Below, in pieces: positions 44,972-62,359 of a stretch of 64,000 nt of DNA. The translations under genes and the position numbers were made by a program. The notes beneath the pieces were generated by a model. The model did no database searches, had not been told where the DNA came from, and was given only the letters and a program-made list of their open reading frames with translations. The stretch is from the sequence record PV029540. One strand, written 5' to 3'. The stretch comes from Escherichia phage PBM-1. Numbering within the stretch: the stretch's first letter is position 1; each line of letters opens with the position of its first letter.

Positions 44972-45603
44972 TGAATGAACCCCAATTACTAATTGAAACT
45001 TGGGGTCAACCTGGCGAAATTATTGATGGTGTGCCAATGCTTGAATCTCATGATGGAAAAGACCTCGGTTTAAAACCTGGTTTATACATCGAAGGAATAT
45101 TCATGCAAGCGGAAGTCGTCAATAGAAATAAACGTCTTTATCCAAAACGCATATTAGAAAAAGCGGTAAAAGACTATATCAATGAGCAAGTTTTAACAAA
45201 ACAAGCTCTCGGAGAATTAAATCATCCTCCACGCGCTAAAGTTGACCCGATGCAAGCCGCTATCATTATAGAAGATATGTGGTGGAAAGGAAATGACGTA
45301 TACGGACGAGCTCGTGTTATTGAAGGTGACCATGGTCCTGGAGATAAATTAGCAGCTAATATTCGTGCCGGATGGATTCCAGGAGTTTCTTCTCGTGGAT
45401 TAGGTTCATTGACTGACACAAATAAAGGTTATCGTATCGTAAACGAAGGATTCAAATTAACTGTAGGTGTTGATGCAGTATGGGGTCCAAGTGCTCCAGA
45501 TGCATGGGTAACCGTGCTTTTCCGCGGTTTTTCTTATAATAATAAGCGAAATCACGACGCCAGTATCCAGATTTCGCGTTATCAATACACAATACAATTT
45601 TAG
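44971..45603 (+). CDS. 21: gp21 prohead core protease, C-terminus replaced by read-through into antisense rnh
   Basis: Position and size fit T4 gp21 through about aa 181 (~45513); the remaining 29 aa are the reverse-complement reading of rnh codons. Confidence 0.7.
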   Translation: MNEPQLLIETWGQPGEIIDGVPMLESHDGKDLGLKPGLYIEGIFMQAEVVNRNKRLYPKRILEKAVKDYINEQVLTKQALGELNHPPRAKVDPMQAAIIIEDMWWKGNDVYGRARVIEGDHGPGDKLAANIRAGWIPGVSSRGLGSLTDTNKGYRIVNEGFKLTVGVDAVWGPSAPDAWVTVLFRGFSYNNKRNHDASIQISRYQYTIQF

Positions 45604-45808
45604 TGTATCCAAGAGTTTTTGCTTTTTTAACATTGAACTTAATTGAGTTCAATATCAAATGACGAACCATTGATAAATTAATTTTTTCTTTATCTGGGAA
45701 GTTTACCAGAGCAGTTGAAAGCGCAATCTGACTAAAGTCAATTAAGCAAATTCCTTCTTTGTAATCTTCATCCAGCATCATTTCTAAATCCATATGAACC
45801 TCGTTCAA
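45452..45808 (-). pseudogene. rnh: RNase H (rnh) 5' fragment: first ~94 codons only
   Basis: From Met6 (45793) matches T4 RNase H MDLEMMLDEDYKEGICLIDFSQ...KKNRGKAR, then diverges at ~45512 into antisense of gene 21; full rnh is 305 aa. Confidence 0.85.
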
Positions 45809-45819
45809 TTAGTGAGATT

Positions 45820-45865
45820 TCTATTATATACTATCTAAATCTTAAAGTAAACAAGTATAAATACT
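45820..45865 (-). promoter_or_regulatory. early promoter for rnh
   Basis: Minus strand GTTTAC-N16/17-TATATAAT upstream of the rnh start. Confidence 0.5.
45856..45863 (+). promoter_or_regulatory. late promoter (TATAAATA) for gene 34
   Basis: Exact TATAAATA ~35 nt upstream of the gene 34 ATG. Confidence 0.6.
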
Positions 45866-45897
45866 TATTATTGAAAACACAATAGGAGCCCGGGAGA

Positions 45898-48800
45898 ATG
45901 GCCGAGATTAAAAGAAAGTTCAGAGCAGAAGATGGTCTGGACGCAGGTGGCGATAAAATAATCAACGTAGCTTTAGCTGATCGTACCGTAGGAACTGACG
46001 GTGTTAACGTTGATTACTTAATTCAAGAAAACACAGTTCAACAATATGATCCAACTCGTGGATATTTAAAAGATTTTGTAATCATTTATAATAATCGTTT
46101 TTGGGCAGCAACGGATAATATTCCAAAACCTGCTGGAAGTTTTAATAGAATTCGTTGGAAAGCATTACGTACTGATGCTGTATATACAACCGTATCATCT
46201 GGACCGTATCAATTAAAATCCGGAGAAGCAATTTCAGTAGATACATCAGTTGGTAATGACATTGAGTTTACTTTACCACCTTCTCCGCTCGATGGAGAAA
46301 CAGTAATAATTCAAGATATCGGTGGAAAACCTGGTATAAATCAGGTTAAAATAAGTTCTTCAAATCAGAGCATTGTTAATTTTAGAGGTGAACAAGTACG
46401 TTCAGTTTTAATGACTCATCCAAAGTCACAGATGATATTCATTTTTAATAATCGTTTGTGGCAAATGTATGTTGCTGATTATAGCAGAGAAGCTGCAATT
46501 GTTACTCCATCGACTGCATATCAAGCACAATCTAATGATTTTATTGTGCGTAGATTTACTTCCGCAGCGCCGATTAATATTAAACTTCCGAGATTTGCTA
46601 ATCATGGCGATATTATTAATTTCGTTGATTTAGATAAATTAAATCCACTTTATCATACAATTGTCACGACATATGATGAAACAACTTCAGTACAAGAAGT
46701 TGGAACTCATTCCATTGAAGGCCGTACATCTATTGATGGTTTCTTGATGTATGATGATAATGAGAAATTATGGAGATTATTTGACGGGGATAGTAAAGCA
46801 CGTTTACGTGTTATAACAACTAATTCTAATATTCGTCCAAACGAAGAAGTTATGGTATTTAGTGCGAATAATGGAACAACTCAAACAATTGAACTTCAGC
46901 TTCCGACCGATATTTCCATTGGCGATACTGTTAAAATTTCCATGAATTACATGAGAAAAGGCCAAACAGTTAAAATCAAAGCTGCCGGTGAAGATAAAAT
47001 TGCTTCTTCAGTTCAATTGCTGCAATTCCCAAAACGTTCAGAATATCCACCTGAAGCTGAATGGGTGACTGTTCAAGAATTAGTTTTTAACGGTGAAACT
47101 AATTATGTTCCAGTTTTACAACTTGCTTATATCGAAGATTCTGACGGAAAATACTGGGTTGTACAGCAAAACGTTCCAACAGTTGAAAGAGTCGATTCTT
47201 TAAATAATTCTACTAGAGCAAGATTAGGCGTAATTGCTTTAGCTACACAAGCTCAAGCTAATGCTGATTTAGAAAATTCTCCACAAAAAGAATTGGCAAT
47301 TACTCCAGAAACGTTAGCTAATCGTACTGCTACAGAAACTCGCAGAGGTATCGCAAGAATAGCAACTACTGCTCAAGTTAACCAGGATACTACATTCTCT
47401 TTTGCTGATGATATTATCATCACTCCTAAAAAGCTGAATGAAAGAACTGCTACAGAAACTCGCAGAGGTGTTGCTGAAATTGCTACGCAACAAGAAACTA
47501 ATGCAGGAACCGATGATACTACAATCATCACTCCTAAAAAGCTTCAAGCTCGTCAAGGTTCTGAATCATTATCTGGTATTGTAACCTTTGTATCTACTGC
47601 AGGTGCTACTCCAGCTTCTAGCCGTGAATTAAATGGTACGAATGTTTATAATAAAAACACTAATAATTTAGTTGTTTCACCTAAAGCTTTAGATCAGTAT
47701 AAAGCTACTCCAACACAACAAGGTGCAGTAATTTTAGCAGTTGAAAGTGAAGTAATTGCTGGACAGAGTCAAGAAGGATGGGCAAATGCGGTTGTAACGC
47801 CAGAAACGTTACATAAAAAGACATCAACTGATGCAAGAATTGGTTTAATTGAAATTGCTACGCAAAGTGAAGTTAATACAGGAACTGATTATACTCGCGC
47901 AGTCACTCCTAAAACTTTAAATGACCGTAAAGCAACTGAAAGTTTAAGTGGTATAGCTGAAATTGCTACGCAAGTTGAATTCGACGCAGGCGTCGACGAT
48001 ACTCGTATCTCTACACCATTAAAAATTAAAACCAGATTTAATAGTACTGATCGTACTTCTGTTGTTGCTCTATCTGGATTAGTTGAATCAGGAACTCTCT
48101 GGGACCATTATACCCTTAATATTCTTGAAGCAAATGAGACACAGCGTGGTACACTTCGTGTGGCTACACAAGTTGAATCTGCTGCAGGAATATTAGATAA
48201 TGTTCTAATAACTCCTAAAAAGCTTTTAGGTACTAAATCTACTGAAGCGCAAGAAGGCGTTATTAAAGTTGCAACTCAATCTGAAACTGTAGCTGGAACG
48301 TCAGCAAATACTGCTGTATCTCCAAAAAATTTAAAATGGATTGTGCAGAGCGAACCTACTTGGGCAGCAACTACTTTGGTAAGAGGTTTTGTTAAAACTT
48401 CATCTGGTTCAATTACATTCGTTGGTAATGATACAGTTGGTTCAACGCAGCCATTAGACTTGTACGAGAAAAATAGCTATGCAGTATCACCATATGAATT
48501 AAACCGTGTATTAGCAAATTATTTGCCGTTAAAAGCAAAAGCTGCTGACGCAAATTTATTAGATGGTCTAGATTCATCTCAGTTCATTCGTAGGGATATT
48601 GCCCAGACAGTTAATGGTTCACTAACCTTAACCAAACAAACGAACCTGAGTGCCCCTCTTGTATCATCTAGTACTGCTACGTTTGGTGGATCAGTTTCAG
48701 CAAATAGTACACTAACTATTTCTAATACTGGAACGGCAACTCAATTAATTTTTGAGAAAGGACCTCAAACTGGAACAAACCCGACTCAAACAATGACTGT

Positions 48801-49767
48801 AAAAGTGTGGGGAAATCAATTTAGCGGGGAGTCAGACACAACACGTTCTACTGTATTTGAAGTTAGTGATGAAACTTCTAGTCATTTTTATTCTCAGCGT
48901 AATAAAGCTGGTAATATAACATTTAATATCAACGGTACAGTAACACCGATAAATGTGAATGCTTCAGGAACATTGAATGCGAATGGCGTTGCAACATTTG
49001 GTAATTCAGTCACTGCAACTGGTGAAATTATTTCTCGAAGCGCAAATGCTTTCCGTGCTATTAATGGAAATTACGGTTTCATTATTCGTAATGACGGGTC
49101 AGTAACGAATTTTATGCTTACTGCATCAGGCAATCAAACTGGTGGATTTAATGGATTGCGTCCATTGTCCATTAATAATCAATCTGGGCAGGTCACAATT
49201 GGTGAAAGCTTGATCATTGCTAAAGGTGCTACTATAAATTCAGGTGGTTTAACTGTTAACTCGAGAATTCGTTCTCAAGGTGTTAAAACATCTGATTTAT
49301 ATACCCGTGCGCCGACATCTGATACTGTAGGATTCTGGTCAATCGATATTAATGATTCAGCCACTTATAACCAGTTCCCGGGTTATTTTAAAATGGTTGA
49401 AAAAACTAATGAAGTTACTGGACTTCCATACTTAGAACGTGGCGAAGAAGTTAAATCTCCTGGTACATTGACTCAGTTTGGTAACACACTTGATTCACTT
49501 TACCAAGATTGGATTACTTATCCAACGACTCCAGAAGCACGTACCACTCGCTGGACACGTACATGGCAAAAAACTAAAAACTCTTGGTCAAGTTTTGTTC
49601 AGGTATTTGATGGAGGTAACCCTCCTCAACCTTCGGATATAGGAGCAATTCCATCTGATAATGGAATAATAGGTAATCTTACTATTCGTGATTTCTTACG
49701 AATTGGTAATGTTCGCATTATTCCTGACCCAGTGAATAAAACTGTTAAATTTGAATGGGTTGAATAA
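45898..49767 (+). CDS. 34: gp34 long tail fibre proximal subunit
   Basis: 1289 aa as in T4; late promoter upstream. Confidence 0.95.
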   Translation: MAEIKRKFRAEDGLDAGGDKIINVALADRTVGTDGVNVDYLIQENTVQQYDPTRGYLKDFVIIYNNRFWAATDNIPKPAGSFNRIRWKALRTDAVYTTVSSGPYQLKSGEAISVDTSVGNDIEFTLPPSPLDGETVIIQDIGGKPGINQVKISSSNQSIVNFRGEQVRSVLMTHPKSQMIFIFNNRLWQMYVADYSREAAIVTPSTAYQAQSNDFIVRRFTSAAPINIKLPRFANHGDIINFVDLDKLNPLYHTIVTTYDETTSVQEVGTHSIEGRTSIDGFLMYDDNEKLWRLFDGDSKARLRVITTNSNIRPNEEVMVFSANNGTTQTIELQLPTDISIGDTVKISMNYMRKGQTVKIKAAGEDKIASSVQLLQFPKRSEYPPEAEWVTVQELVFNGETNYVPVLQLAYIEDSDGKYWVVQQNVPTVERVDSLNNSTRARLGVIALATQAQANADLENSPQKELAITPETLANRTATETRRGIARIATTAQVNQDTTFSFADDIIITPKKLNERTATETRRGVAEIATQQETNAGTDDTTIITPKKLQARQGSESLSGIVTFVSTAGATPASSRELNGTNVYNKNTNNLVVSPKALDQYKATPTQQGAVILAVESEVIAGQSQEGWANAVVTPETLHKKTSTDARIGLIEIATQSEVNTGTDYTRAVTPKTLNDRKATESLSGIAEIATQVEFDAGVDDTRISTPLKIKTRFNSTDRTSVVALSGLVESGTLWDHYTLNILEANETQRGTLRVATQVESAAGILDNVLITPKKLLGTKSTEAQEGVIKVATQSETVAGTSANTAVSPKNLKWIVQSEPTWAATTLVRGFVKTSSGSITFVGNDTVGSTQPLDLYEKNSYAVSPYELNRVLANYLPLKAKAADANLLDGLDSSQFIRRDIAQTVNGSLTLTKQTNLSAPLVSSSTATFGGSVSANSTLTISNTGTATQLIFEKGPQTGTNPTQTMTVKVWGNQFSGESDTTRSTVFEVSDETSSHFYSQRNKAGNITFNINGTVTPINVNASGTLNANGVATFGNSVTATGEIISRSANAFRAINGNYGFIIRNDGSVTNFMLTASGNQTGGFNGLRPLSINNQSGQVTIGESLIIAKGATINSGGLTVNSRIRSQGVKTSDLYTRAPTSDTVGFWSIDINDSATYNQFPGYFKMVEKTNEVTGLPYLERGEEVKSPGTLTQFGNTLDSLYQDWITYPTTPEARTTRWTRTWQKTKNSWSSFVQVFDGGNPPQPSDIGAIPSDNGIIGNLTIRDFLRIGNVRIIPDPVNKTVKFEWVE

Positions 49768-49775
49768 GAGGTATT

Positions 49776-50891
49776 ATGGAAAAATTTATGGCAGAGTTTG
49801 GACAAGGATATGTCCAAACGCCATTTTTATCGGAAAGCAATTCAGTAAGATATAAAATAAGCATAGCGGGCTCTTGCCCGCTTTCTACTGCAGAGCCATA
49901 TGTTAAATTTCAGGATAATCCCATTGGAAATCAAACATTTAGTGCAGGTCTTCATTTAAGAGTTTTTGACCCTTCTACGGGAGCATTAGTTGATAGTAAG
50001 TCATATGCTTTTTCTGCTTCAAACAATACAACATCTGCCGCTTTTGTCAGTTTTATGAATTCTTTGTCAAACAATAGACTTGTTGCTATATTAACTAGCG
50101 GAAAGGTTAATTTTCCTCCTGAAGTGGTATCTTGGTTAAGGGGAGCAGGAACTTCAGTTTTTCCATCAGATTCAGTATTGTCAAGATTTGACGTATCATA
50201 TGCTGCTTTTTATACTTCTTCTAAAAGAGCTATTGCATTAGAGCATGTTAAACTAAGTAATAGAAAAAGCACAGATGATTATCAAACTATTTTAGATGTT
50301 GTATTTGATAGTTTAGAAGACGTCGGAGCTACGGGATTTCCTAAAAGAACATATGAAAGTGTCGAGCAATTTATGTCAGCGGTTGGTGGAACTAACAACG
50401 AAATTGCGCGATTACCAACTTCAGCTGCTATAAGTAAACTATCTGATTATAATTTAATTCCTGGTGATGTTCTTTATCTTAAAGCACAGTTATATGCTGA
50501 TGCTGATTTACTTGATCTTGGAACTACAAATATATCTATCCGTTTTTATAATGCATCAAATGGATATATTTCTTCAACACAGGCTGAGTTTACTGGGCAA
50601 GCTGGGTCATGGGAATTAAAGGAAGATTATGTAGTTGTTCCTGAAAATGCAGTCGGATTTACTATATATGCGCAGAGAACTGCTCAAGCTGGTCAAGGCG
50701 GACTGAGGAATTTAAGCTTTTCTGAAGTATCAAGAAATGGCGGCATTTCAAAACCTGCCGAATTTGGCGTCAACGGTATTCGCGTTAATTATGTCTGTGA
50801 ATCGGCTTCACCTCCAGATATAATGGTACTTCCTACACAAGCCTCTTCTAAAACTGGCAAAGTGTTTGGGCAAGAATTTAGAGAAGTTTAA
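49776..50891 (+). CDS. 35: gp35 long tail fibre hinge protein
   Basis: 371 aa; position. Confidence 0.9.
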   Translation: MEKFMAEFGQGYVQTPFLSESNSVRYKISIAGSCPLSTAEPYVKFQDNPIGNQTFSAGLHLRVFDPSTGALVDSKSYAFSASNNTTSAAFVSFMNSLSNNRLVAILTSGKVNFPPEVVSWLRGAGTSVFPSDSVLSRFDVSYAAFYTSSKRAIALEHVKLSNRKSTDDYQTILDVVFDSLEDVGATGFPKRTYESVEQFMSAVGGTNNEIARLPTSAAISKLSDYNLIPGDVLYLKAQLYADADLLDLGTTNISIRFYNASNGYISSTQAEFTGQAGSWELKEDYVVVPENAVGFTIYAQRTAQAGQGGLRNLSFSEVSRNGGISKPAEFGVNGIRVNYVCESASPPDIMVLPTQASSKTGKVFGQEFREV

Positions 50892-50897
50892 ACTGAG

Positions 50898-50920
50898 GGA
50901 GCCTTCGGGTTCCCTTTTTC
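50898..50920 (+). terminator. rho-independent terminator after gene 35
   Basis: GGGAGCC-TTCG-GGTTCCC hairpin followed by TTTTT. Confidence 0.6.
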
Positions 50921-50923
50921 TTT

Positions 50924-50931
50924 ATAAATAA
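50924..50931 (+). promoter_or_regulatory. late promoter (TATAAATA) for gene 36
   Basis: Exact TATAAATA after the gene 35 terminator. Confidence 0.6.
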
Positions 50932-50953
50932 TATTAAAATAAAGGGGCATATA

Positions 50954-51604
50954 ATGGCTGATTTAAAAGTAGGTTCAACTGTGGGTGGATCTGTCATTTG
51001 GCATCAAGGAAATTTTCCATTGAATTCAGCCGGTGACGATGTACTCTACAAATCATTTAAAATATATTCAGAATATAATAAACCACAGGCAGCTGATAAC
51101 GATTTCGTTTCTAAAGCTAATGGTGGTACTTACACCGGTCCAATTACTATTAATTACGGGGTAAATAGTTATCTTCAATTAAGTAATAATGAAACCCCCA
51201 TTCGAATTCGTTCTGGTGGCGGTACCGGCAATACTCTTGTAGTTGGCGGCTCTTCTGGCGGTATTAGTTTTAGACCTGCAGGTAGTGAAATCACTACTGG
51301 ACAAATTACTATTACGCCAGAAGGTTTGACAACATTTACCAGGGCTGTAACGGCTCCATCTGTAACTGTTACATCTACTCCTTCAGCAGCATCTGATGTT
51401 ACTCGTAAAGATTATGTCGATGGAGCAATAAATACTGTTACGGCAAATGCGAATTCTAGAGTTTTGCGTAAAGGTGACACCATGACAGGTAATTTAACAG
51501 CGCCAAACTTTTTCTCGCAGAATCCTGCATCTCAACCCTCGCATGTTCCACGATTTGACCAAATCGTGATTAAGGATTCTGTTCAAGATTTCGGCTATTA
51601 TTAA
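50954..51604 (+). CDS. 36: gp36 long tail fibre distal connector
   Basis: 216 aa; position; terminator and late promoter upstream. Confidence 0.9.
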
Positions 51605-51612
51605 GAGGACTT

Positions 51613-54597
51613 ATGGCTACTTTAAAACAAATACAATTTAAAAGAAGCAAAACTGCAGGTCAACGTCCTGCTGCTTCAGTATTAGCCGAAGGTGAATTGG
51701 CTATTAATTTAAAAGATAAAACAATTTTCACAAAAGATGACTCAGGCAGTGTTATAGAATTAGGTTTAAAATATGGAGGAACAATTGATGGTTCTTTAAC
51801 TGTTAATGGAAGTATAATTGGAAATTTAACAGGTAACGCTGCAACTGCAACGAAATTGCAAACACCTAGGAAAATTAATGGTATATCTTTTGATGGGTCA
51901 AAGGACATTACCTTAACTCCATCTGACATAAATGTCAATAGCACAACGTTTATAAAAAATAACGGCGAATTACCGGTTGATGCTAATTTAGATGAGTATG
52001 GGCCTGTTGAAGAATATCTTGGAGTTTGGTCGAAAGCAACTTCAACCAACGCTCAACCAGCAAATAAATTTCCAGAAAAAAATGCCGTAGGTGTGCTAGA
52101 AGTATTTGTGGCCGGTCAATTTGCTGGTACTCAGAGATATACAACCAGATACGGAAATGTTTATATTCGTTCCTTGACTGCTACATGGAACGGAGTAAAT
52201 GGTCCGTGGAGTGTGTGGCGAAATATTCAATCCGGTACTCGTCCACTGTCAACAACAATTGATCTTAATGATCTAGGAGGTGCTGAACACTTTGGCTTGT
52301 GGAGGAATAGTTCAAATTCCATTGCTACCTTTGACAGAAATTTCCCAGAAGAGGGGTCGTCCGCTCAAGGTCTTTTGGAAGTATATGAAGGTGGAAACTA
52401 TTCTCGCACACAGAGATATACAACCAGATTTGGTGTTGTTTATACTCGCTGTCTTACTGCTGCGTGGAATGCTTCTGCGCCTAAATGGGGACCGTGGCAA
52501 CAAGTCGGTAATGTCACACCGGCGACTTTCTATGACGGAGACCTGAATGATTTTAAAACTCCTGGGTTATATAATATTTTAGGTACTGATGCCGTTATTA
52601 ACTGTCCTACAGGTGAAGGTTTACCAGCCGTTATTGTTGGTTTGCTGGAAGTTAAACAGCGTGCTTCTGGTGGTGCTATTTTCCAAAAATTTACTACTGC
52701 CGGAACAGGTACAACTACTCGCGGACGTATTTTTGAGCGTGCATACACTAATGGTGTTTGGGGTACATGGAACGAAGTATATACATCTTATTCTCTGCCA
52801 ATTACTTTGGGTATGGGTGGTATTAAAGCTCAATTAGCGGAGTTAGATTGGCAAGCCTTTGATTTTGTCCCTGGTAGTATGTTTAGCGTTCCTTTGAATA
52901 AAATAAAGAACATGCCAGCAAATATGGATTGGGGGACGATTGATGGAAACTTGGTTATGTTTTCTGTCGGTCCTAGCGAACATACTAGCACAGGGCGTAC
53001 TGTTCAGGTTTGGCGTGGTACTGTATCCCAGACAAACTACCGTTATTTTGTCGTTCGTGTATTCGGTAATTCAGGAAATAGAACTTGCACAGTTCGTCGT
53101 GTTGTTCTTGAAGATGGTCGCCACAAATGGACAGCGCAGCAAGATTTTAATGGCGCAGTTAACTTCGGTGCTCCTACCAATTTTAACTCTACTGTTAACC
53201 TTAATAACACTACCACTTTTAAAACAGAAGTTAAATTCCGCTCATTGAATGCATTTAAAATGTACGGCGGTAAGTTTGGCGCAATTTTCCGTAATGATGG
53301 AGAGAGTCTTTATATTCTTTCCACCGACGAAGATGATCAAGATGGAAACTTTAATACAAATAGACCTTTCCGTTATGAATTGAGAACTGGTGATGTTACT
53401 TTAGGTGGTACTAGTGGTGCTAACGTTTTAAAATTAAAACGTGATTCTCTCACCGCATTTTTTGGTGGTGATATTAATATAAAAGGCTTGATGACTTTTG
53501 ACGCTGGACGTTTAGGATCACGAGATTATTTTAAATTTAACCATTGGGGTGATAGTAATAATGCGCGTGATAACATTATTCAGTTAGAAGACAGCAAAGG
53601 AGTTCATTTTTCTACTGAACGTACTTTAGCGACTGGTGCAATTAAAACTAAATTCTTTGGTGAAGTTGAATCCGATGGTAGATTGATTATTAAACGTCCG
53701 GGTGATTCTATTGTATTATCAGCACCTGCTAGTAATTCTTTGCATATTCGTGGTGACGTAGACGGGACTAATAACTGGTATATTGGTAAGGGTGGTGATG
53801 ATAATGGATTAGCGTTCTATAGTTATGCTACTAATGCTGGTGTATACATTACAAACGCAGGAGATATCACGCTAAGTCCAAAAGGCGTCGAAATGGCTCA
53901 TGTTAATAACGTTCGATTATATGTTCATGGTGAACGTTGGACCGCTAGTCAACCAGGTGATTGGGGCAACCAATGGCGAGTAGAAGCGCCAATATTCGTC
54001 GATCATGGTTATGTTGGACCAGATAGTTATTATCCAATTATTAAAGGAAGAAGTGTAGTCACCAATCAAGGGTTTGTAACTGCCGTCGATCTTGGTATTC
54101 GTCGTATCCCTAATAATTGGGGACAAGCAATTATTCGTGTTGGATCTGCGGAGGCTTCTCCTGATGCTGGTCATCCTAACGCGATATTCGAGTTCCACTA
54201 TGATGGGTTCTTTTATGCACCAGGAAATGGAAGTTTTAATGATGTGTATATTCGTTCCGATGGTCGTCTTAAGATTAATAAAAAAGAGCTAGAAAACGGA
54301 GCGGTTGAAAAAGTTTGCCGACTGAAAGTTTATACTTACGATAAAGTTAAGTCTATTAAAGACCGTAGTGTTATTAAACATGAAGTTGGTATTATTGCGC
54401 AGGATCTTGAAAAGGAATTGCCAGAAGCTGTATCTAAAGTTGAAGTTGATGGATCTGATGTTCTGACAATTTCTAACTCTGCTGTGAATGCTCTTTTAAT
54501 TAAGGCCATTCAGGAAATGAGCGAAGAAATTAAAGAATTGAAAACACCTTTCTTCACTAAAATTGCTCGTAAAATTAGAAATTATTTTAAATTCTAA
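51613..54597 (+). CDS. 37: gp37 long tail fibre distal subunit with C-terminal intramolecular-chaperone-like domain
   Basis: 994 aa; N-terminal 50 aa conserved with T4 gp37; C-terminal ~110 aa carry an auto-processing chaperone-like signature ([16 protein letters not shown]). Confidence 0.85.
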
Positions 54598-54629
54598 CAA
54601 CACGGGGCTTTGCCCCTTTGGAGAAAATT

Positions 54630-55430
54630 ATGGCAGTAGTTGGTGTTCCTGGTTGGATTGGAAGTTCATCCGTAAATGAAACAGGACAACGATGGATGAG
54701 TCAAGCGGCTGGTCAATTAAGATTGGGTGTTCCTTGCTGGATGAGTCAATTTGCAGGTCGCTCAAGAGAAATTATTCACACACTTGGAGCAGACCATAAC
54801 TTCAATGGTCAATGGTTCCGAGATAGATGTTTTGAGGCAGGTAGTGCACCTATAGTGTTTAATATCACCGGAAATTTGGTATCATATTCTAGAGATGTTC
54901 CTTTATTCTTCATGTATGGAGATACACCAAATGAATATGTTCAGTTGAATATTAGCGGTGGAGCTCATATGTGGGGCAGAGGTGGACAAGGTGGATGGAC
55001 TCATTCTGGTGGGGATGGTAATGGTCAACAGGGTGGGCATTGTATTCAAAATGACATTGGTGGTCGATTAAGAATTAATAATGGTGGAGTAATTTGTGGC
55101 GGTGGCGGCGGTGGCGGCGGTATCGCTTATCGTCCTCACTCTGGTGCAAACTGGCAAGATATTGGTGGCGGTGGAGGAAGACCATTTGGCCCAGGAGGTG
55201 GCGGTGGTTATTCAGGAGGCGCTGCTTCTTACGATGGCCCAGGAGGTGGTTATAATTATGGTAATGCTCACTCCGGTCAGGGTGGTGATGCTGGTGCAAA
55301 TGGACAAAATGCCTGGTATGATGGCGGTAAAGTACTAAAAGTCGGCGCTGGCGGCGCTGCTGGTTATGCCGTCATAGGATCAGCACCAACATGGCAAAAT
55401 GTTGGAATAATATATGGTCCAAGAGTATAA
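54630..55430 (+). CDS. 38: gp38 receptor-binding adhesin (T2-type, glycine-rich motifs)
   Basis: ORF 54618-55430 starts at TTG; ATG at Met5 with GGAGAA SD; conserved N-terminal [13 protein letters not shown]...; C-terminal poly-Gly islands separated by short variable segments. Confidence 0.85.
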
Positions 55431-55461
55431 TTTTGAATAAATATCCTTAAAAGGAGGGTCT

Positions 55462-56118
55462 ATGGCAGCACCTAGAATATCATTTTCGCCCTCTGATATT
55501 CTGTTTGGTGTTCTAGATCGCTTGTTCAAAGATAACGCTACCGGGAAAGTTCTTGCTTCCCGGGTAGCTGTCGTAATTCTTTTGTTTATAATGGCGATTG
55601 TTTGGTATAGGGGAGATAGTTTCTTTGAGTACTATAAGCAATCAAAGTATGAAACATACAGCGAAATTATTGAAAAGGAAAGAAATGCACGCTTTGAATC
55701 TGTCGCCCTGGAACAACTCCAGATAGTTCATATATCATCTGAGGCAGACTTTAGTGCGGTGTATTCTTTCCGCCCTAAAAACTTAAACTATTTTGTTGAT
55801 ATTATAGCATATGAAGGAAAATTACCTTCAACAATAAGTGAAAAATCACTTGGAGGATATCCTGTTGATAAAACTATGGATGAATATGCAGTTCATTTAA
55901 ATGGACGTCATTATTATTCCAACTCAAAATTTGCTTTTTTACCAACTAAAAAGCCTACTCCCGAAATAAATTACATGTACAGTTGTCCATATTTTAATTT
56001 GGATAATATCTATGCTGGAACAATAACCATGTACTGGTATAGAAATGATCATATAAGTAATGACCGCCTTGAATCAATATGTGCTCAGGCGGCCAGAATA
56101 TTAGGAAGGGCTAAATAA
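55462..56118 (+). CDS. t: holin
   Basis: 218 aa, near-identical to T4 holin T. Confidence 0.95.
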   Translation: MAAPRISFSPSDILFGVLDRLFKDNATGKVLASRVAVVILLFIMAIVWYRGDSFFEYYKQSKYETYSEIIEKERNARFESVALEQLQIVHISSEADFSAVYSFRPKNLNYFVDIIAYEGKLPSTISEKSLGGYPVDKTMDEYAVHLNGRHYYSNSKFAFLPTKKPTPEINYMYSCPYFNLDNIYAGTITMYWYRNDHISNDRLESICAQAARILGRAK

Positions 56119-56391
56119 TTATTTGTTCGTATACATCTCTAGATATCGATATACACCCTCAAAACCCTCGTTGAATTCGTCGATGAGGGTTTTCTTATCT
56201 TCTTGAGTTAATTCAGAAACAATTTTACGGAATGAATTCTGATTTAACTTTCTACCTTCATGCGTTACTCCAATCTCATTCAGAAATGCAATAAAATTAG
56301 CGCGATTCTCAACAATATCTTCTCTGGAAAATTTAATCAAAATAGACGCAACAGTAATAATTTCACGAACTGTATCAATATTTTTATTCAT
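56119..56391 (-). CDS. asiA: anti-sigma70 factor AsiA
   Basis: 90 aa matching T4 AsiA (MNKNIDTVREIITVASILIKFSRED...). Confidence 0.9.
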   Translation of the reverse strand: MNKNIDTVREIITVASILIKFSREDIVENRANFIAFLNEIGVTHEGRKLNQNSFRKIVSELTQEDKKTLIDEFNEGFEGVYRYLEMYTNK

Positions 56392-56403
56392 TAACTATAC
56401 CAC

Positions 56404-56556
56404 TCAATTAGTTGACTTTGTTATAATATCATCAGACGCTTGATTTGTAAACTGGTCTGTGGTATTTTCTTCAAAAATTTTTTCTACGAATTCCTTGAAC
56501 GACTTACGTTCCTGAGCTACATTATGCTCGATTACTTTTTCAAGATTATGACTCAT
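56404..56556 (-). CDS. small hypothetical protein (~50 aa)
   Basis: Hand-found ORF below the 60-aa track cutoff; ATG overlaps arn stop (ATGA); coordinates approximate. Confidence 0.3.
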   Translation of the reverse strand: MSHNLEKVIEHNVAQERKSFKEFVEKIFEENTTDQFTNQASDDIITKSTN

Positions 56557-56831
56557 TCGAAATAATCTTCAATTTCATAATCAAGGACATAAATCATTAT
56601 AGTTTTTAATACATCATCAATACTTTTTCCTGGAGCTGGAATTACGTAAAAATATCCTGCTTTTGAGAGGTCTTTATAAGTTCCAACCAAGAAATCATTA
56701 TTCTCAAGATGCAGTTCTTCAACTAATTCATTAACAATTGAGTGGTATAAATTTGGTAGAAACTTATATAGCTTTTCTAGAATATCAATTTTGATTGTGT
56801 ATTGAACCACAGATTGAGAATCAATAATCAT
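56553..56831 (-). CDS. arn: Arn-like anti-restriction protein
   Basis: 92 aa acidic protein at the arn position between asiA and motA. Confidence 0.65.
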   Translation of the reverse strand: MIIDSQSVVQYTIKIDILEKLYKFLPNLYHSIVNELVEELHLENNDFLVGTYKDLSKAGYFYVIPAPGKSIDDVLKTIMIYVLDYEIEDYFE

Positions 56832-56908
56832 AGACCTTCCCCTTATGTTTCTGTTTGCGATTAGATTCTTTAAACGCTTTCTTCTTATCCTTATGGACAG
56901 AAGCTTTA

Positions 56909-57133
56909 TTAAAATTGTGTTTTGCGACTAAATTGTTCATAGTGCTGAATTACCTCTCTCAAACACTTGCATGTGAATGAAAACTTTTTAGCTACACCAC
57001 ATTCAAATATATGTTCTCTTAAATCACGTGTGTCAGTATATCCCATCTCAACAATAAAATGTCTTATTAGATTTTTATCTTTATCATTGAGAGAATTAAA
57101 ATAATCGGATTTTGAATTAATTTCCCTGGCCAA
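56909..57133 (-). CDS. hypothetical protein (74 aa)
   Basis: ORF between arn and motA. Confidence 0.5.
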   Translation of the reverse strand: MAREINSKSDYFNSLNDKDKNLIRHFIVEMGYTDTRDLREHIFECGVAKKFSFTCKCLREVIQHYEQFSRKTQF

Positions 57134-57413
57134 ATTGAATCACCTTCAGTTGACGTTTTAGTTCTTTTATCATTTCTTCGTTCATCGCAATATAAAGATC
57201 GCGTAAAGCAGGTTTTAACATTCCATTTACTGGAGAACTAAATGGACATACATAATCTTTTCCTACGAGCTTTTTGGTGAATTCCATATCACAGAACTGA
57301 AATGCCGGTTCATTGGCATAAATTCCCCAATTAGATGACATCATTTTATTGGCATATTCCAACGCCTGGATTTGATTCTTAATTCCATCAATTTGAAACT
57401 TTTTAATATTCAT
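57117..57413 (-). CDS. hypothetical protein (98 aa)
   Basis: ORF between arn and motA. Confidence 0.5.
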   Translation of the reverse strand: MNIKKFQIDGIKNQIQALEYANKMMSSNWGIYANEPAFQFCDMEFTKKLVGKDYVCPFSSPVNGMLKPALRDLYIAMNEEMIKELKRQLKVIQFGQGN

Positions 57414-57874
57414 TAGTAAAGGTCCTCAGAGTAAAGTTCTTTTTCACTACCACCGCGTTCAATACGTACTTGTCCGGCGTAAGTTGCAATAATCATTGCT
57501 TCTTCACGTGTCCAGTAATTGCTATACTGATCAATAAACCCTTGGTCATCATCACAAACTTGCTGAGTAACTAATTGAGGTTTAACTACATCTAAAACTT
57601 CTGCCATATCTTTAGAATAATGACGAGCACCTGGAATAACAAGAGTTCGTCCATCTTTTAATTTAAAACGGTTGGCGGCACAAACAATTCGTCGTTGATA
57701 CTTTTGGTTTTCATCCCAGTATGCGGTCTGCCAACAGATTTCAGGAACTTCTTTCAGAATATCTTCTTCTGTGCATTTATAACCATGTGCTTTAAATTTT
57801 TCAACAAGACTTTCTGGAGTTTCACGAGATAAAGGAACATTCAGCATTTTTAAACGATTAATAAATGGGTTCAT
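57413..57874 (-). CDS. hypothetical protein (153 aa)
   Basis: ORF; TAATG coupling with neighbours. Confidence 0.55.
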
Positions 57875-58200
57875 TTAAACCATCCTTTAATACGCTGCCA
57901 CAGAGTTTTCTGTTGAGCTTTGTTAACACCAATTGAGCGAATAACTGGTTGAGATTCCTGGAATTCTTTATAATCAGCAAGGTAAATTTCGTAAGCTGCA
58001 TCCGTAAATGAACTTATCGCCGCCATAAAATTATTGCGAATACCTACTGGTGCATCTTTACTTTCACGAATAATCATGTATTTACCAGTCTTAATCTTTA
58101 CGATAGTTCCAAGATAAGCTCCATGATACCAGATATCCCACCCCTCTTGAGTGGGTTCTGCACAACGACGAAGTTCATTAACAATTTCTAACTTGTTCAT
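57871..58200 (-). CDS. hypothetical protein (109 aa)
   Basis: ORF; ATGA coupling. Confidence 0.55.
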
Positions 58201-58210
58201 TATTTATTCC

Positions 58211-58846
58211 TCACAGTTCAGATGCTACGGTGATTACTGCTTCAATGTTTTCTGCCGAGCGTTTAATGTCAAGATACACATTGCCGTTTTTAGCGATTTT
58301 ACATGACATTCCAATATTAGTAAATTTCTGAATATGGTGTTCCATCATTTTGTATCCAAAAATTCGCATATTTCCATTGTTATTAATTTCAAAATTACGA
58401 ATTCCGTGAGTGCGTTTTTCTAAAATAGCAAGATAGTTACTGCGGTAAGTTTCAACCTTTTTAAGAACAAATCCATTTTCATCTAAAAGTTTTAGCATAA
58501 GGTCTTTATCTTCTTCCATATCGGAAGTAATCTCACGAGCTTTACGAGTTGCTCGTTTTTTCAGTAGTTCAGGAGCATTTTCCTGTGCATATAAAGTTGC
58601 TGCATTTGAAATAATATCCTGAGCTTCTCCTGTAATGATTAATCCATCACCAGATTTCTCTACCAGACCTTTTTTAATCAATACCCCAATATTACTATTA
58701 ACTACTGCATTACCTAAATCTGGATGCACCTCACGAACTTCTGCGGCTGTAATGAAATCTTTCTTAGCAATGGTAATTAAAATCGCAGCAGTTTTTTCAT
58801 TCAGAACATCGTTAGAAGCTTTGATGATGTAAGTTACTTTAGACAT
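58211..58846 (-). CDS. motA: MotA middle-transcription activator
   Basis: 211 aa matching T4 MotA (MSKVTYIIKASNDVLNEKTAAILITIAKKDF...). Confidence 0.9.
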   Translation of the reverse strand: MSKVTYIIKASNDVLNEKTAAILITIAKKDFITAAEVREVHPDLGNAVVNSNIGVLIKKGLVEKSGDGLIITGEAQDIISNAATLYAQENAPELLKKRATRKAREITSDMEEDKDLMLKLLDENGFVLKKVETYRSNYLAILEKRTHGIRNFEINNNGNMRIFGYKMMEHHIQKFTNIGMSCKIAKNGNVYLDIKRSAENIEAVITVASEL

Positions 58847-58869
58847 TTTAATCTCCGTTTCAGTTCATT

Positions 58870-58925
58870 TATTTGATAGGTCTATAGTATCATGTTTAAA
58901 GCAGAAGTAAACACTTTTTTGCACT
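58870..58925 (-). promoter_or_regulatory. T4-type early promoter upstream of motA
   Basis: Minus strand GTTTAC-N18-TACTAT. Confidence 0.5.
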
Positions 58926-58951
58926 CTTTTTCAAGAGCTCTAATAAAGTAC

Positions 58952-59179
58952 TTACTTAATGTTCAGATTACGAACTTCGATTTCGTCTTCATGGGCAAAA
59001 TCAAACTGTTTGAATTCTGTGTCACCTTTAAATTTAAAAATCATTGTGAAGAAAGTCAGAACACCAGGTTTTTCTTCACGAACTCCACAGATGTCATATT
59101 CAATACCATCTACAACCAGTTTGTTAGCAGTCAGAGCATTTTTAGCTTTAACGATTTCGTTTTCGATTTTAAATTTCAT
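58952..59179 (-). CDS. hypothetical protein (75 aa)
   Basis: ORF with conserved early promoter upstream. Confidence 0.5.
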   Translation of the reverse strand: MKFKIENEIVKAKNALTANKLVVDGIEYDICGVREEKPGVLTFFTMIFKFKGDTEFKQFDFAHEDEIEVRNLNIK

Positions 59180-59214
59180 TTTTGTATCTCCGGGTTGTTT
59201 GTTTCAGTTCATTT

Positions 59215-59280
59215 ATTTGATAGTTGTATAGTACCACAGTATGCTTTGGTTGTAAACCGTTTTGTGAAAAAATTTTTGAA
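59215..59280 (-). promoter_or_regulatory. T4-type early promoter
   Basis: Minus strand AAAAATTTTTTCACAAAAC-GGTTTACA-N17-TACTATA. Confidence 0.5.
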
Positions 59281-59286
59281 ATAAAA

Positions 59287-59310
59287 AAGGGAGAGCCGAG
59301 GCTCTCCCTA
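59287..59310 (-). terminator. rho-independent terminator downstream of gene 52 unit
   Basis: Minus strand GGGAGAGCC-TCGG-CTCTCCC hairpin followed by TTTTTT. Confidence 0.6.
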
Positions 59311-59313
59311 AAA

Positions 59314-59463
59314 TTACTGCATGACTGTGATAACTGTCATGATAACACGTTGAATTCCGAACGCAAGAAGACCTCCTGCTACGGCAGGAACAACACCTAA
59401 ACCCGCCAGTAAAATGCCACCAGATACTAATGCAGCGCTTGTAATACCTATGAATGGACTCAT
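59314..59463 (-). CDS. small hydrophobic membrane peptide (~49 aa)
   Basis: Hand-found ORF below track cutoff; ATG overlaps gene 52 stop (ATGA); Gly/Ala-rich helix; coordinates approximate. Confidence 0.35.
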   Translation of the reverse strand: MSPFIGITSAALVSGGILLAGLGVVPAVAGGLLAFGIQRVIMTVITVMQ

Positions 59464-60788
59464 TTGATTTCCTCTAAATCTTTGGTGTATTCTGTAACTA
59501 CATCAGTAGTTTTCCAATATTCGTTTTCTTCTTTTTTAGCTTTAGCTTCTTCAGCAAGTTTCTTTGCTTCGTCGGAAGTCATATGAAAAATATTCATTCC
59601 AACTAGTTTATCAACATAAGAAGAATACATATCAATTTTAGAAAGTTCTTCGGTCAGTTCTTTGCGAGTTTTACCTTGTACAACAATTTCACCTGAAATT
59701 ACTTTCTTAATGAAATGCGCCTTGGCAAAGGCTAAACGAAATGCTGATTCAGTTTCTTTGATTTTGTTATCAATTCGTTTTTGGACATAAGTTTTACGAA
59801 CTTCAACGAAGTCTTTGATTAAATCAACTACGTTATCGTAAACTTGTAGTTTTCCTTTCTCATTAATAACGGTAATATTCTGGGAACGACGCTCAATCAA
59901 CCCGAAGTCTTTCATAATTTTTGCATGGCGTTCTTCTTCGTTATCGCTCAAGGAATATTCTTTACGGAATTTAACTTTGAAGCCAAAACCATGCTCACCA
60001 CAAGCATCATCCCATGTAATGAAGCCTTTATCTTCAAGCGGGTCTAAGATTTTACTCACATAAGTTTCACGATCATACTTATACGGAATCTCAGTGATAT
60101 GCATTTGAGTTCGTGAAGTAAACTTGTACGTTCCACGAATTTCATATTGACCGTCAATTTCAACGACTTCACCGCGAAATTCTGGAAATTCTACCTTCGG
60201 TTTAGTTACTTTCTTTCCTTGAAGAGCTTGCAATACAGCTTTCTTGACAGAAGAAACACTATGAGGAAGAATATAAGTTGCATAACCAGTTGCAATACCG
60301 GAAACACCATTAAGAAGAACAGTAGGAATAATAGGCAAATAGAAAGCAGGCGGAATGTGTTCTTTATCTTGATGTACCGGAGCATATTCAGTATCTTTAT
60401 ATACGCTATAGAAATTTTTACTTACACGAGCAAAAATATAACGACTTGCCGCTGCTTTTTGAACGGTACGAGAACCAAAGTTTCCTTGACCATCTAACAG
60501 AGGAAAGTTATTATTCCAAGTATTAGCCATCAAAGCACCTGCGTCTTGTGCAGAGTTTTCACCATGATGATATCCAAGGTCTGCTACACCACCTGCAATA
60601 GAAGCGAGTTTGTGAAACTTATCTTTATTTCCTCGTGCCAAATCAAGAGCTCGAGCAATAACAAATCGTTGAACTGGCTTAAATCCATCAATCATATTTG
60701 GGATAGCACGATTTTCAACCGTGTACATAGCATAAGCCAATGCTTCGTTATCAATGATACTTTTTAAATCGCGATTATTCAGTTGCAT
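59460..60788 (-). CDS. 52: gp52 DNA topoisomerase II medium subunit
   Basis: 442 aa; gyrase A-like motifs; size as in T4. Confidence 0.95.
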   Translation of the reverse strand: MQLNNRDLKSIIDNEALAYAMYTVENRAIPNMIDGFKPVQRFVIARALDLARGNKDKFHKLASIAGGVADLGYHHGENSAQDAGALMANTWNNNFPLLDGQGNFGSRTVQKAAASRYIFARVSKNFYSVYKDTEYAPVHQDKEHIPPAFYLPIIPTVLLNGVSGIATGYATYILPHSVSSVKKAVLQALQGKKVTKPKVEFPEFRGEVVEIDGQYEIRGTYKFTSRTQMHITEIPYKYDRETYVSKILDPLEDKGFITWDDACGEHGFGFKVKFRKEYSLSDNEEERHAKIMKDFGLIERRSQNITVINEKGKLQVYDNVVDLIKDFVEVRKTYVQKRIDNKIKETESAFRLAFAKAHFIKKVISGEIVVQGKTRKELTEELSKIDMYSSYVDKLVGMNIFHMTSDEAKKLAEEAKAKKEENEYWKTTDVVTEYTKDLEEIK

Positions 60789-60792
60789 AAAT

Positions 60793-60933
60793 TTACCATA
60801 CTAGTGAATGTAGTGCCATAATAACATCAGAAATGAAAAGCACGACTTGAATTAATCCGAACATTACTCCATAATATAGTGCTACCAATAAAGTAGCAAG
60901 GGCTAATGAATAGCCCAAGATTTTCTTAATCAT
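60793..60933 (-). CDS. small hydrophobic peptide (~46 aa)
   Basis: Hand-found ORF below track cutoff, upstream of gene 52; coordinates approximate. Confidence 0.25.
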   Translation of the reverse strand: MIKKILGYSLALATLLVALYYGVMFGLIQVVLFISDVIMALHSLVW

Positions 60934-61083
60934 TAGTAGATAACAACACAAATGTTAAATATGCACACATACCCTGAGATAAAGCTTGTGAAAACACGCT
61001 GTTAGCATCGGTGCAGATAGTTAAAACACATGCTACTATCCAACAAATCATTGAAATAATTCCAATAATTTTCGTAATATTCA
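60925..61083 (-). CDS. small hydrophobic peptide (~52 aa)
   Basis: Hand-found ORF below track cutoff; coordinates approximate. Confidence 0.25.
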
Positions 61084-61180
61084 TAATATTCTCCTCGATT
61101 GTTTTTAAAACCTAAAACACCGAAATTTTTAAGATTGTTACGATAGAACTGCATCACATGTTCGTTATGGAAATTACTCA

Positions 61181-61636
61181 TTAGTATACCTGCAAAACAA
61201 ATTTAAAGTTATCAGCCAACATACGGTTCATTTCTTCAAGTGTTTGATACTCAGAATGATGATTACGAGTAAACGCTAAAGCTAACTGACCTTTTCCAAA
61301 TCCAGTCGTTAGAGGTTTCATCTTAGAAGCAGGCAAATAAAATACTGTGTATGGAACATTATTATTTGCAATAGTACGCGCAAGCTGAGACCGACGTTGA
61401 CGAATATGACTTAGAACTGCACTGAACCCTTGCTTAGAACGCTGATTACCTACATAAAATCGCGCAGATACACATGGACTATCAAATGGACCACCAAATT
61501 TGCTCACTAAAAAGTAAAATCCAGGTTTAGACAAAATGTCTTTATGTGGAGTTCCAAAAACCCATTCACCGCCCTTGATTGTACCAATAACAGTTGCGCC
61601 TGCATTATTCAGATCAGTAACAGTCATGTATTTCAT
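61181..61636 (-). CDS. ndd: Ndd nucleoid disruption protein
   Basis: ORF 61181-61684; 151 aa from Met17 ([19 protein letters not shown]...) matching T4 Ndd. Confidence 0.85.
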
Positions 61637-61696
61637 ATTAATTTCCTCTAAATTATTTTCTACTCCAAGGCCGCATGAATACACACGGCCGATAAA

Positions 61697-61912
61697 TTAA
61701 TCGTCGCAGTCGACGCTCAATTCCCAAAACTCTTCTACGGTATATGTTTCAGTATCATTTTCAATACAGAAACGTTTATTACTGTTGTTTTCTAAAGTAG
61801 CGTTAACTGTCATTTTCTCGCTAGTGCTCTTAAGAGGTGAAATACGAATTAACTGATCACCATTATCTAAACAAAAAATTTCACCAACTTTTACATCTTT
61901 AAAAATTTTCAT
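61697..61912 (-). CDS. hypothetical protein (71 aa)
   Basis: ORF with GAGGTG SD. Confidence 0.5.
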   Translation of the reverse strand: MKIFKDVKVGEIFCLDNGDQLIRISPLKSTSEKMTVNATLENNSNKRFCIENDTETYTVEEFWELSVDCDD

Positions 61913-61920
61913 AATTCACC

Positions 61921-62031
61921 TCAAGGAGTATAAAATCCGAATGCAGTTGTTGACCATCCCATCCAATACGGAAAATTTGCACCAATGTAAAACATGAGAA
62001 TATAAAACCAACCGCTCAGCAAATTCATCAT
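61921..62031 (-). CDS. small hydrophobic peptide (~36 aa)
   Basis: Hand-found ORF; ATGA overlap with upstream stop; coordinates approximate. Confidence 0.3.
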   Translation of the reverse strand: MMNLLSGWFYILMFYIGANFPYWMGWSTTAFGFYTP

Positions 62032-62246: not shown

Positions 62247-62346
62247 AGTAAGCGTTTAATACATCAATCATTAAAACGATTGGGAATATACTCAAAACTA
62301 CTAGTATTATAACTACATTCCATATAGCTTTAACAATCTTTTTCAT
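62233..62346 (-). CDS. small hydrophobic peptide (~37 aa)
   Basis: ORF 62233-62442; upstream part is a promoter element; start at Met33. Confidence 0.4.
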   Translation of the reverse strand: MKKIVKAIWNVVIILVVLSIFPIVLMIDVLNAYFGFM

Positions 62347-62359
62347 TTTCTGTTCCTCC

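Follow-up and report, generated by a model that had tools for sequence, protein, structure and literature searches.

The distal long-tail-fibre module of Escherichia phage PBM-1: an S74 chaperone-bearing gp37 and a gp38 adhesin of the T2/RB32 type

The genes between 36 and t in Escherichia phage PBM-1 (PV029540; the window analysed here is a 64,000-nucleotide stretch) raise the question of how the tip of its long tail fibre is built, which receptor it is likely to recognize and whether the module arrived by recent exchange. An earlier note, made from the sequence alone, had read the pair as a host-range module composed of a gp37 with a self-cleaving C-terminus and a glycine-rich gp38 adhesin, and this interpretation proved essentially right. 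The two points on which that reading was said to stand or fall, S74 homology in gp37 and a conserved N-terminal domain in gp38, were both examined and neither contradicted it. We consider it highly probable that this is the distal long-tail-fibre module of a Tequatrovirus in its standard T2/RB32 form, with an S74-cleaved gp37 and a gp38 adhesin.

Both open reading frames were confirmed on the plus strand, gp37 at 51613-54597 (994 aa, 109.2 kDa) and gp38 at 54630-55430 (266 aa, 27.0 kDa), in agreement with the gp37 coordinates and the gp38 end given previously. The start of gp38 was placed at the ATG at 54630, which has a Shine-Dalgarno sequence (GGAG, 54620-54623) and agrees with the annotation of RB32; a TTG at 54618 was dropped, being merely the mechanically first start codon. 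The 32-nt spacer between the gp37 stop codon and gp38 contains a hairpin (GGGGCTTTGCCCC, 54604-54616) followed by the GGAG (together 54604-54623, plus strand). As a functional terminator this hairpin was rejected, its folding energy being close to that of shuffled sequence (z = −0.98) and the T-run after it short. Upstream on the same strand, gene 36 (50954-51604) encodes the 216-aa hinge/distal connector gp36 (98.6% identity to RB32 gp36, 66% to T4 gp36). It is preceded by a T4-type late promoter (TATAAATA, 50923-50930, plus strand), itself preceded by a terminator-like hairpin (50895-50916). No other exact match to a late promoter lies between genes 35 and t, and genes 36-37-38 are therefore probably transcribed as a single late unit. 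Downstream lies the holin gene t (55462-56118, plus strand; 99% identity to T4 t and 99.5% to RB32 t). The order 36-37-38-t is common to the window, RB32, T2 and AV119, with gp38 directly downstream of the chaperone-bearing gp37.

As a long tail fibre distal subunit precursor, gp37 matched PHROG 1699 (long tail fiber distal subunit) from end to end (E = 1.5e-227). Only its conserved N-terminus (51613-51767, plus strand), presumably the end that joins gp36, has DNA homology to gp37 of T4 and T2; aa 1-66 are 79% identical to T4 gp37, and DNA homology to T4 stops at 51767 (codon 52). The earlier claim that only the N-terminal ∼50 aa of T4 gp37 were kept therefore stands as to the shared N-terminus (52-66 aa) but was slightly too strong, since a second, weak match to T4 gp37 was found at aa 544-598 (33%, E = 9e-6). 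A Pfam gp37_trimer match was sub-threshold. The shaft carries two tandem domains of ∼87 aa (aa 120-205 and 212-298; 51970-52506, plus strand) with a mutual identity of 39% (E = 2e-20), for which no Pfam family was found even at E ≤ 1. A third copy suspected by eye at aa 300-395 was not significant (E = 0.099). Further along, a Gp34_trimer-like domain (aa 521-587; 53173-53373, plus strand; PF21446, E = 4e-12) also aligns with the solved C-terminal region of T4 gp34. The distal part of gp37, from about aa 685 to 874 (53665-54233, plus strand), has no DNA homology to RB32 (Tequatrovirus RB32, NC_008515), whereas its flanks are 91-92% identical; this patch reflects recombination within the gene, a process typical of T-even fibre genes. 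Overall, gp37 shares 69.7% identity with its RB32 counterpart and differs in length (994 versus 1,027 aa).

The last 113 of the 994 residues (aa 882-994, 12.9 kDa; 54256-54594, plus strand) constitute a Peptidase_S74 intramolecular chaperone domain, predicted to be released after trimerisation. The suggestion of a chaperone-like, auto-proteolytic C-terminus was borne out by a Pfam match above the gathering score (PF13884, aa 882-940; 41.4 bits against a cutoff of 22, E = 1.7e-10; profile positions 1-57 of 58), which encloses the 18-residue motif that had prompted it (aa 923-940; 54379-54432). When the S74 domains of four phages were combined in a profile, it matched 6f45_A (S16 gp37, E = 1.1e-29), 7dc3 (the intramolecular-chaperone autoprocessing domain of MYRF, E = 1.4e-8) and 8jov (a further tail fibre, E = 3.2e-8); in these matches the SD-R-K motifs lined up. 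A direct phmmer search of the PDB with the C-terminal domain found nothing beyond 6f45_A and 8jov, and even the four-sequence profile did not extend to the chaperone structures of endosialidase or the T5 fibre. An AlphaFold2 model of the C-terminal 135 aa from the single sequence was unusable (mean pLDDT of 40.5).

Autocleavage is predicted between Arg881 and Ser882 in DVYIR^SDGRLK (54253-54258, plus strand), with Ser882 and Lys887 (codon 54271-54273) of S882-D-G-R-L-K887 as the putative catalytic pair. In the endosialidase literature, a serine at the cleavage site and a lysine five residues downstream form a Ser-Lys dyad. The Val, Tyr, Arg, Ser, Asp, Arg and Lys of the motif VY(I/V)RSDxRxK are invariant in all four aligned sequences (window, RB32, T2 and AV119), and RB32 has the same S74 C-terminus, including the extended 16-residue tail. 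DVYIR^SDGRLKI has been given as the cleavage site of the Gp37 homologues of fPS phages, by alignment to the experimentally cleaved site of S16 (PMC7917993). Salmonella phage S16 has the same two-gene system (gp37 tip and gp38, PDB 6F45), and its chaperone, likewise of 113 residues, is cut before SD-R-K (PMC7917993); the SDGRLK site of the window aligns to its cleavage motif, S^SDRRIK. Ahead of the cleavage site, S16 gp37 is unrelated to gp37 of the window except for the last few residues. Cleavage would be expected to yield products of 96.3 and 12.9 kDa.

The adhesin, gp38 (54630-55430, plus strand), is 97.7% identical to that of RB32 (6 substitutions) and 99.2% identical to that of SHFML-11. 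It matched PHROG 2056 (tail fiber protein; host specificity) at E = 1e-112, Pfam GP38 (PF05268; E = 1.9e-68, 231 bits against a cutoff of 25) over profile positions 1-218 of 218, and Gp38_N (PF21721; E = 3.3e-19, 69.1 bits against a cutoff of 25); these two Pfam matches, like those of Peptidase_S74 and Gp34_trimer in gp37, were above their cutoffs. The N-terminal attachment domain (aa 1-42; 54630-54755, plus strand) corresponds to Gp38_N and contains Trp9, Trp22 and Trp37, which align with tryptophans of S16, as expected from the conserved gp37-binding region proposed in the earlier note; the conserved N-terminal tryptophans of gp38 insert into the gp37 tip (PMC7917993). This domain is of the RB32 type, unlike that of AV119, whose DNA homology to the window starts only at 54716 and whose gp37 is largely unrelated.

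Glycine makes up 37% of aa 115-266 of gp38, compared with 12% of the N-terminal part, and includes runs of 8, 5 and 5 residues. An alignment of the window sequence with T2, S16, PP01, RB32 and AV119 resolved the glycine islands and variable loops already noticed at this locus into five conserved blocks and four variable segments, which alternate in per-column conservation. The receptor-binding region, with boundaries drawn by us from the alignment, spans 54975-55379 (plus strand). Within it, the conserved glycine-rich motifs occupy aa 116-122 (54975-54995), 135-164 (55032-55121), 179-193 (55164-55208), 216-225 (55275-55304) and 239-250 (55344-55379), and the variable loops aa 123-134 (54996-55031), 165-178 (55122-55163), 194-215 (55209-55274) and 226-238 (55305-55343), all on the plus strand. 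Among solved structures, the best match was gp38 of PP01 (PDB 9v85, a GFP fusion; E = 6.5e-72, aa 38-266), in which the core from the attachment domain to the glycine motifs is nearly identical while the loops differ throughout the receptor-binding region. S16 gp38 (6f45_D) could be aligned over aa 5-263 (E = 1.8e-49), with tryptophans and glycine motifs kept and variable loops differing. Trojet et al. describe gp38 as apparently trimeric (PMC3157838), whereas Lutz et al. describe the Gp38 structure as monomeric (PMC12032242).

These features suggest how the fibre tip may mature. By analogy with S16 and T2, gp37 would join gp36 through its conserved N-terminus and form a trimeric distal half-fibre. 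Its 113-aa S74 chaperone would assist trimer folding and then remove itself between Arg881 and Ser882, through Ser882 and Lys887, baring a hydrophobic tip on the mature 881-aa gp37. There gp38 would dock through its tryptophan-bearing N-terminal attachment domain, its polyglycine-rich C-terminal domain offering the variable loops to the host outer membrane. Gene structure, family membership, conservation of the catalytic and contact residues and the mosaic boundaries can be read directly from the sequence; for cleavage and docking, as for receptor use below, we infer function from sequence likeness to characterized systems.

Alternatively, gp38 might only help gp37 to assemble, like the T4 gp38 chaperone, rather than being a virion adhesin, or the S74 domain might be a degenerate, non-cleaving remnant. 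The gene order and name do follow T4, in which gp37 and gp38 occupy the same place between 36 and t, and homologues appear in some database records under the name “distal long tail fiber assembly catalyst”. However, the 183-aa gp38 of T4 is an assembly factor of unrelated sequence, to which gp38 of the window has no BLASTP hit at E ≤ 1e-3. The matches of the latter over its full length are with the adhesin family and with adhesins of known structure, and the T4 annotation itself calls gp38 of the T2 subfamily an unrelated adhesin. The Ser/Lys pair and its surrounding motif are invariant, which argues against a remnant, and either version of this alternative is scarcely credible. The variable loops of gp38 hardly differ from those of RB32 and AV119, two phages shown by experiment to depend on OmpA, and OmpA is accordingly predicted as the primary receptor, with LPS contributing to some extent as it does in RB32. 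RB32 needs OmpA, shows sensitivity to LPS and passes that specificity to RB5 with its HVS segment (PMC3157838); AV119, a phage of OmpA “type 1” with broad host range, is also OmpA-dependent (PMC12032242) and shares 95.5% identity with the window in the receptor-binding half of gp38. Delineating the loops and predicting a receptor from them had been proposed as a follow-up at this locus; for this, RB32 and AV119 were preferred to K3 and Ox2, being much closer and having receptors established by experiment. A retargeted adhesin, with the same architecture but loop substitutions directing it to another receptor (e.g., Tsx, OmpF, OmpC, FadL or OmpW), is nevertheless conceivable, if unlikely. A single loop change in RB68 gp38 (Q206L) switches its receptor from OmpF to OmpW (bioRxiv 10.64898/2026.04.02.716166), and the loops here differ from those of RB32 at two positions (N174K and Y230H, window residue first) and from those of AV119 at P169V, D202V, G203A, N209Q, A223G and Y230S, with seven differing positions in the receptor-binding half as a whole. 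Against this, two independently characterized relatives with receptor-binding domains 95-98% identical to that of the window both use OmpA, a receptor common to RB32 and AV119 even though these two diverge from one another at similar sites. The residues of AV119 reported to contact OmpA (R165, S168-A170, R181, D217 and R262; PMC12032242) are all conserved in gp38 of the window, with numbering shifted by +3, and Gp38 phylogeny is reported in the same paper to predict receptor class. We give only a slim chance to the substitutions relative to RB32 and AV119 altering which OmpA loop variants are recognized, or adding or switching a receptor; if they did, the host range of this allele would not be predictable from its relatives.

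The same comparisons bear on whether a T4-like backbone recently gained the module through horizontal exchange, an origin that we regard as very unlikely. Homology to T4 does break sharply at 51767 and resumes at 55437, with flanks 89-97% identical, and the GC content of the module (0.40-0.48) exceeds that of its flanks (∼0.35). Identity to T4 is 95% for gp35, 99% for t and 100% for asiA. Mosaicism is further evident in the patch relative to RB32 (53665-54233) and the break relative to AV119 (54716). However, the nearest genome in the database, Escherichia phage EPIMAM01 (PQ493298), is as close to the module (99.7% DNA identity) as to the window from 45514 to 64000 (99.2%), which gives no hint that PBM-1 swapped its module recently, and many phages are collinear with the window at 94-96% across 45514-64000. 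EPIMAM01 gp37 is equal in length to that of the window and 99.7% identical; in its deposited gp38, a 128-bp tandem duplication shifts the frame, giving an annotated 250-aa hypothetical protein, whereas gp38 of the window is intact. Adhesin-type gp38 is the majority form, found in 786 records of the phage collection compared with 297 for T4-type gp38, as Trojet et al. also described it as predominant (PMC3157838). A foreign origin for the raised GC content was ruled out: third-position GC of gp38 (0.24) lies within flank values (0.19-0.27), and it is the first and second positions that carry the excess (0.67 and 0.63, respectively, for the glycine-rich half), so that the raised GC reflects GGN glycine codons rather than foreign codon usage. 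Given the majority status of the adhesin form, the equal closeness of module and flanks to the nearest relative and the flank-like third-position GC, the exchange is best read as old and lineage-wide, with T4 the unusual one. The description of the module as clearly exchanged relative to T4-like flanking genes thus holds with T4 as the reference, but does not extend to a recent event, and of the two flanking genes named, t is T4-like (99%) whereas the middle of gp36 (51133-51374) is without DNA homology to T4.

The architecture, the autocleaving chaperone, the design of glycine motifs and variable loops and the mosaic recombination are all already in the literature. The module occurs in hundreds of Tequatrovirus genomes (628 phage records contain similar DNA, the best at 99.7%), near-identical sequences have already been deposited, and the arrangement is common and well studied; beyond correct annotation, its significance is small and no new question is opened. 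Since the module sets host range, the prediction of OmpA, with LPS sensitivity, is useful to those using or engineering the phage, and the gene pair could provide one more natural allele for collections relating gp38 loop sequence to receptor choice.

The gp37-gp38 module at 51613-55430, encoding the distal long tail fibre and its tip adhesin, is a textbook T2/RB32-type host-range module; for near-identical proteins the structure, the cleavage site, the logic of the modules and data on the receptor have all been published. The earlier note described it accurately. The module forms part of the canonical long-tail-fibre block of T-even phages, which lies on the + strand (45898-56118) and comprises gp34 (45898-49767; 1289 aa), gp35 (49776-50891; 371 aa), gp36 (50954-51604; 216 aa), gp37 (51613-54597; 994 aa), gp38 (54630-55430; 266 aa) and holin t (55462-56118; 218 aa). 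For gp38, the TTG at 54618 taken from a mechanical ORF list was replaced by the ATG at 54630, because this codon lies six bases downstream of a GGAG (54620-54623), the Pfam Gp38_N match starts at its Met, and RB32 is annotated with a gp38 gene of the same size (801 nt). gp35 also scores above the Pfam threshold for the ILEI family (PF15711, interleukin-like EMT inducer; E = 8e-8, aa 58-112); the name is surprising in a phage hinge protein, and a common small fold presumably accounts for the match.

Shortly before gene 36, at 50923, there is an exact T4 late-promoter motif (TATAAATA), and a motif search found none ahead of gene 37 or gene 38; genes 36-37-38 are therefore probably one late co-transcribed unit. 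The motif directly follows a terminator-like hairpin (GAGGGAGCCTTCGGGTTCCCTT) and T-run, and this arrangement (50895-50930) has the look of a boundary separating the transcription units of genes 35 and 36. In the gp37-gp38 spacer, ahead of the gp38 Shine-Dalgarno sequence, lies a small GC-rich hairpin (54604-54616; GGGGC-TTT-GCCCC, then TTT), whose folding energy was not unusual relative to shuffled sequences (z = -0.98). Just past the gp38 stop codon, TTTGAATAAATA (55432-55442) spans position 55437, where T4 homology resumes, and contains a late-promoter-like motif with one mismatch (AATAAATA) ~20 nt ahead of the start codon of the holin gene.

gp37 was assigned to PHROG 1699 (long tail fiber distal subunit; E = 1.5e-227). 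Its shaft carries two tandem domains of ~87 aa (aa 120-205 and 212-298; 51970-52506, + strand; 39% mutual identity, E = 2e-20), for which a Pfam search found no family; a match to PHROG 4618 ("tail collar fiber protein") falls on aa 120-298, and statistical support was not found for a possible degenerate third copy after them. Further along is a Gp34_trimer-like Pfam domain (aa 521-587, + strand), which also aligns to the solved C-terminal region of T4 gp34. The proposal that gp37 ends in an intramolecular chaperone/auto-proteolytic module is supported by a Pfam match to Peptidase_S74 ("chaperone of endosialidase") at aa 882-940 (41.4 bits, cut-off 22; E = 1.7e-10), which encloses the 18-aa motif originally singled out (aa 923-940). 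Ser882 and Lys887 are present at the start of the domain, and an alignment of gp37 C-termini (window, RB32, T2 and AV119) showed V-Y-x-R-S-D-x-R-x-K to be invariant, with G-x-x-A-Q and L-P-E-x-V of the 18-aa motif likewise unchanged. When a profile built from this alignment was run against all PDB sequences, the SD-R-K motif aligned in three matches: 6f45_A, which is S16 gp37 (E = 1.1e-29); 7dc3, the intramolecular-chaperone autoprocessing domain of myelin regulatory factor (E = 1.4e-8); and 8jov, a further phage tail fibre (E = 3.2e-8). Salem et al. (PMC7917993) report that in S16 autocleavage at DLNVS^SDRRIKK follows trimerisation, removes the last 113 residues and exposes the gp38 docking surface; the counterpart site by alignment in fPS phages is DVYIR^SDGRLKI. 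The fPS sequence is identical to the gp37 sequence here, and the predicted fragment is likewise 113 aa, giving predicted products of 96.3 kDa (aa 1-881) and 12.9 kDa. An AlphaFold model made from the single sequence of the domain reached a pLDDT of 40.5, too low to be of use, so the S74 assignment is a sequence-level one.

gp38 matched Pfam GP38 over the full profile (E = 1.9e-68), Gp38_N (E = 3.3e-19) and PHROG 2056 (tail fiber protein; host specificity, E = 1e-112), and aligned over almost its full length with the solved structures 9v85 (E = 6.5e-72; PP01 gp38, by a 100% tblastn match) and 6f45_D (S16 gp38; E = 1.8e-49). The N-terminal attachment domain contains Trp9, Trp22 and Trp37, aligned with tryptophans of S16. 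Thus both the S74 homology and the conserved gp37-binding region, on which the earlier note had staked its reading, were searched for and found. The glycine content of gp38 is 37% in aa 115-266 and 12% in aa 1-114. Alignment with T2, S16, PP01, RB32 and AV119 resolved the expected glycine islands and loops as five conserved glycine-rich blocks (by our own delineation, aa 116-122, 135-164, 179-193, 216-225 and 239-250) alternating with four variable segments (aa 123-134, 165-178, 194-215 and 226-238). This layout matches the design of glycine-rich motifs and hypervariable segments (HVS) of Trojet et al. (PMC3157838) and the polyglycine-motif and hypervariable-loop arrangement of S16 (PMC7917993).

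The primary receptor is predicted, with good confidence, to be OmpA, because gp38 is close to those of two OmpA users and retains the interface residues of one. Six substitutions separate it from RB32 gp38 (S14A, S109G, A112V, N174K, Y230H and I260V), only two of them within variable loops. Work with Keio mutants showed RB32 to be OmpA-dependent and affected by LPS composition, and a 400-bp HVS-containing segment of its gene 38 confers RB32 specificity on RB5 (Trojet et al., PMC3157838). The receptor-binding half is 95.5% identical to that of AV119, an OmpA-dependent phage of the broad "type 1" whose reported OmpA-interface residues are R165, S168, G169, A170, R181, D217 and R262 (Lutz et al., PMC12032242); all seven are kept here, with numbering shifted by +3. 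Some doubt is left because one loop substitution, Q206L in RB68, can switch the receptor (bioRxiv 10.64898/2026.04.02.716166).

The module had also been called clearly exchanged relative to its T4-like flanks. Against T4 this stands: gp35, t and asiA are 95, 99 and 100% identical to their T4 counterparts, whereas gp37 shares 79% identity over aa 1-66 and is otherwise essentially unrelated apart from one weak 33% stretch, and protein comparison found no match between the two gp38s. DNA homology to T4 reaches 51132, is lost mid-gene 36, returns at 51375-51767 (gp37 codon 52) and is then absent until 55437, six bases past the gp38 stop codon. Real and sharply bounded as it is against T4, the replacement is not particular to PBM-1: module DNA occurs in 628 phage records (over at least 80% of its length in 108 of them). 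The adhesin form of gp38 is the predominant one (Trojet et al., PMC3157838), in agreement with 786 records carrying it vs 297 with T4-type gp38 in the phage collection. The module's raised GC was rejected as a foreign-DNA signature: GC3 of gp38 (0.24) resembles that of the flanks (0.19-0.27), and the excess comes from the glycine-rich half, at 0.67 for codon position 1 and 0.63 for position 2.

In Escherichia phage EPIMAM01 (PQ493298), the nearest database genome, the module is 99.7% and the flanks 99.2% identical. Its gp38 contains a 128-bp tandem duplication (locus 6018-6976; window 55103-55230) that shifts the frame, leaving an annotated 250-aa "hypothetical protein" and a 207-bp gap before the holin; gp38 here is intact, without the duplication, which could be an assembly artefact in the glycine-codon repeat region or a genuine inactivating mutation. 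The record OR584013 ("Pseudomonas phage PsgM02F") has Pseudomonas coronafaciens as its labelled host; it contains the Tequatrovirus module with 91% identity, and over 18 kb it is collinear with the window at 94.7%, which points to a wrong host label or contamination by an E. coli phage. Relative to RB32, a patch in distal gp37 (53665-54233) is unrelated between flanks of 91-92% identity, and DNA homology with AV119 starts only at 54716. This mosaicism is of the usual T-even kind and finer than the module; judging by the AV119 boundary, the attachment domain of gp38 moves together with the gp37 type and the receptor-binding half is shuffled independently.
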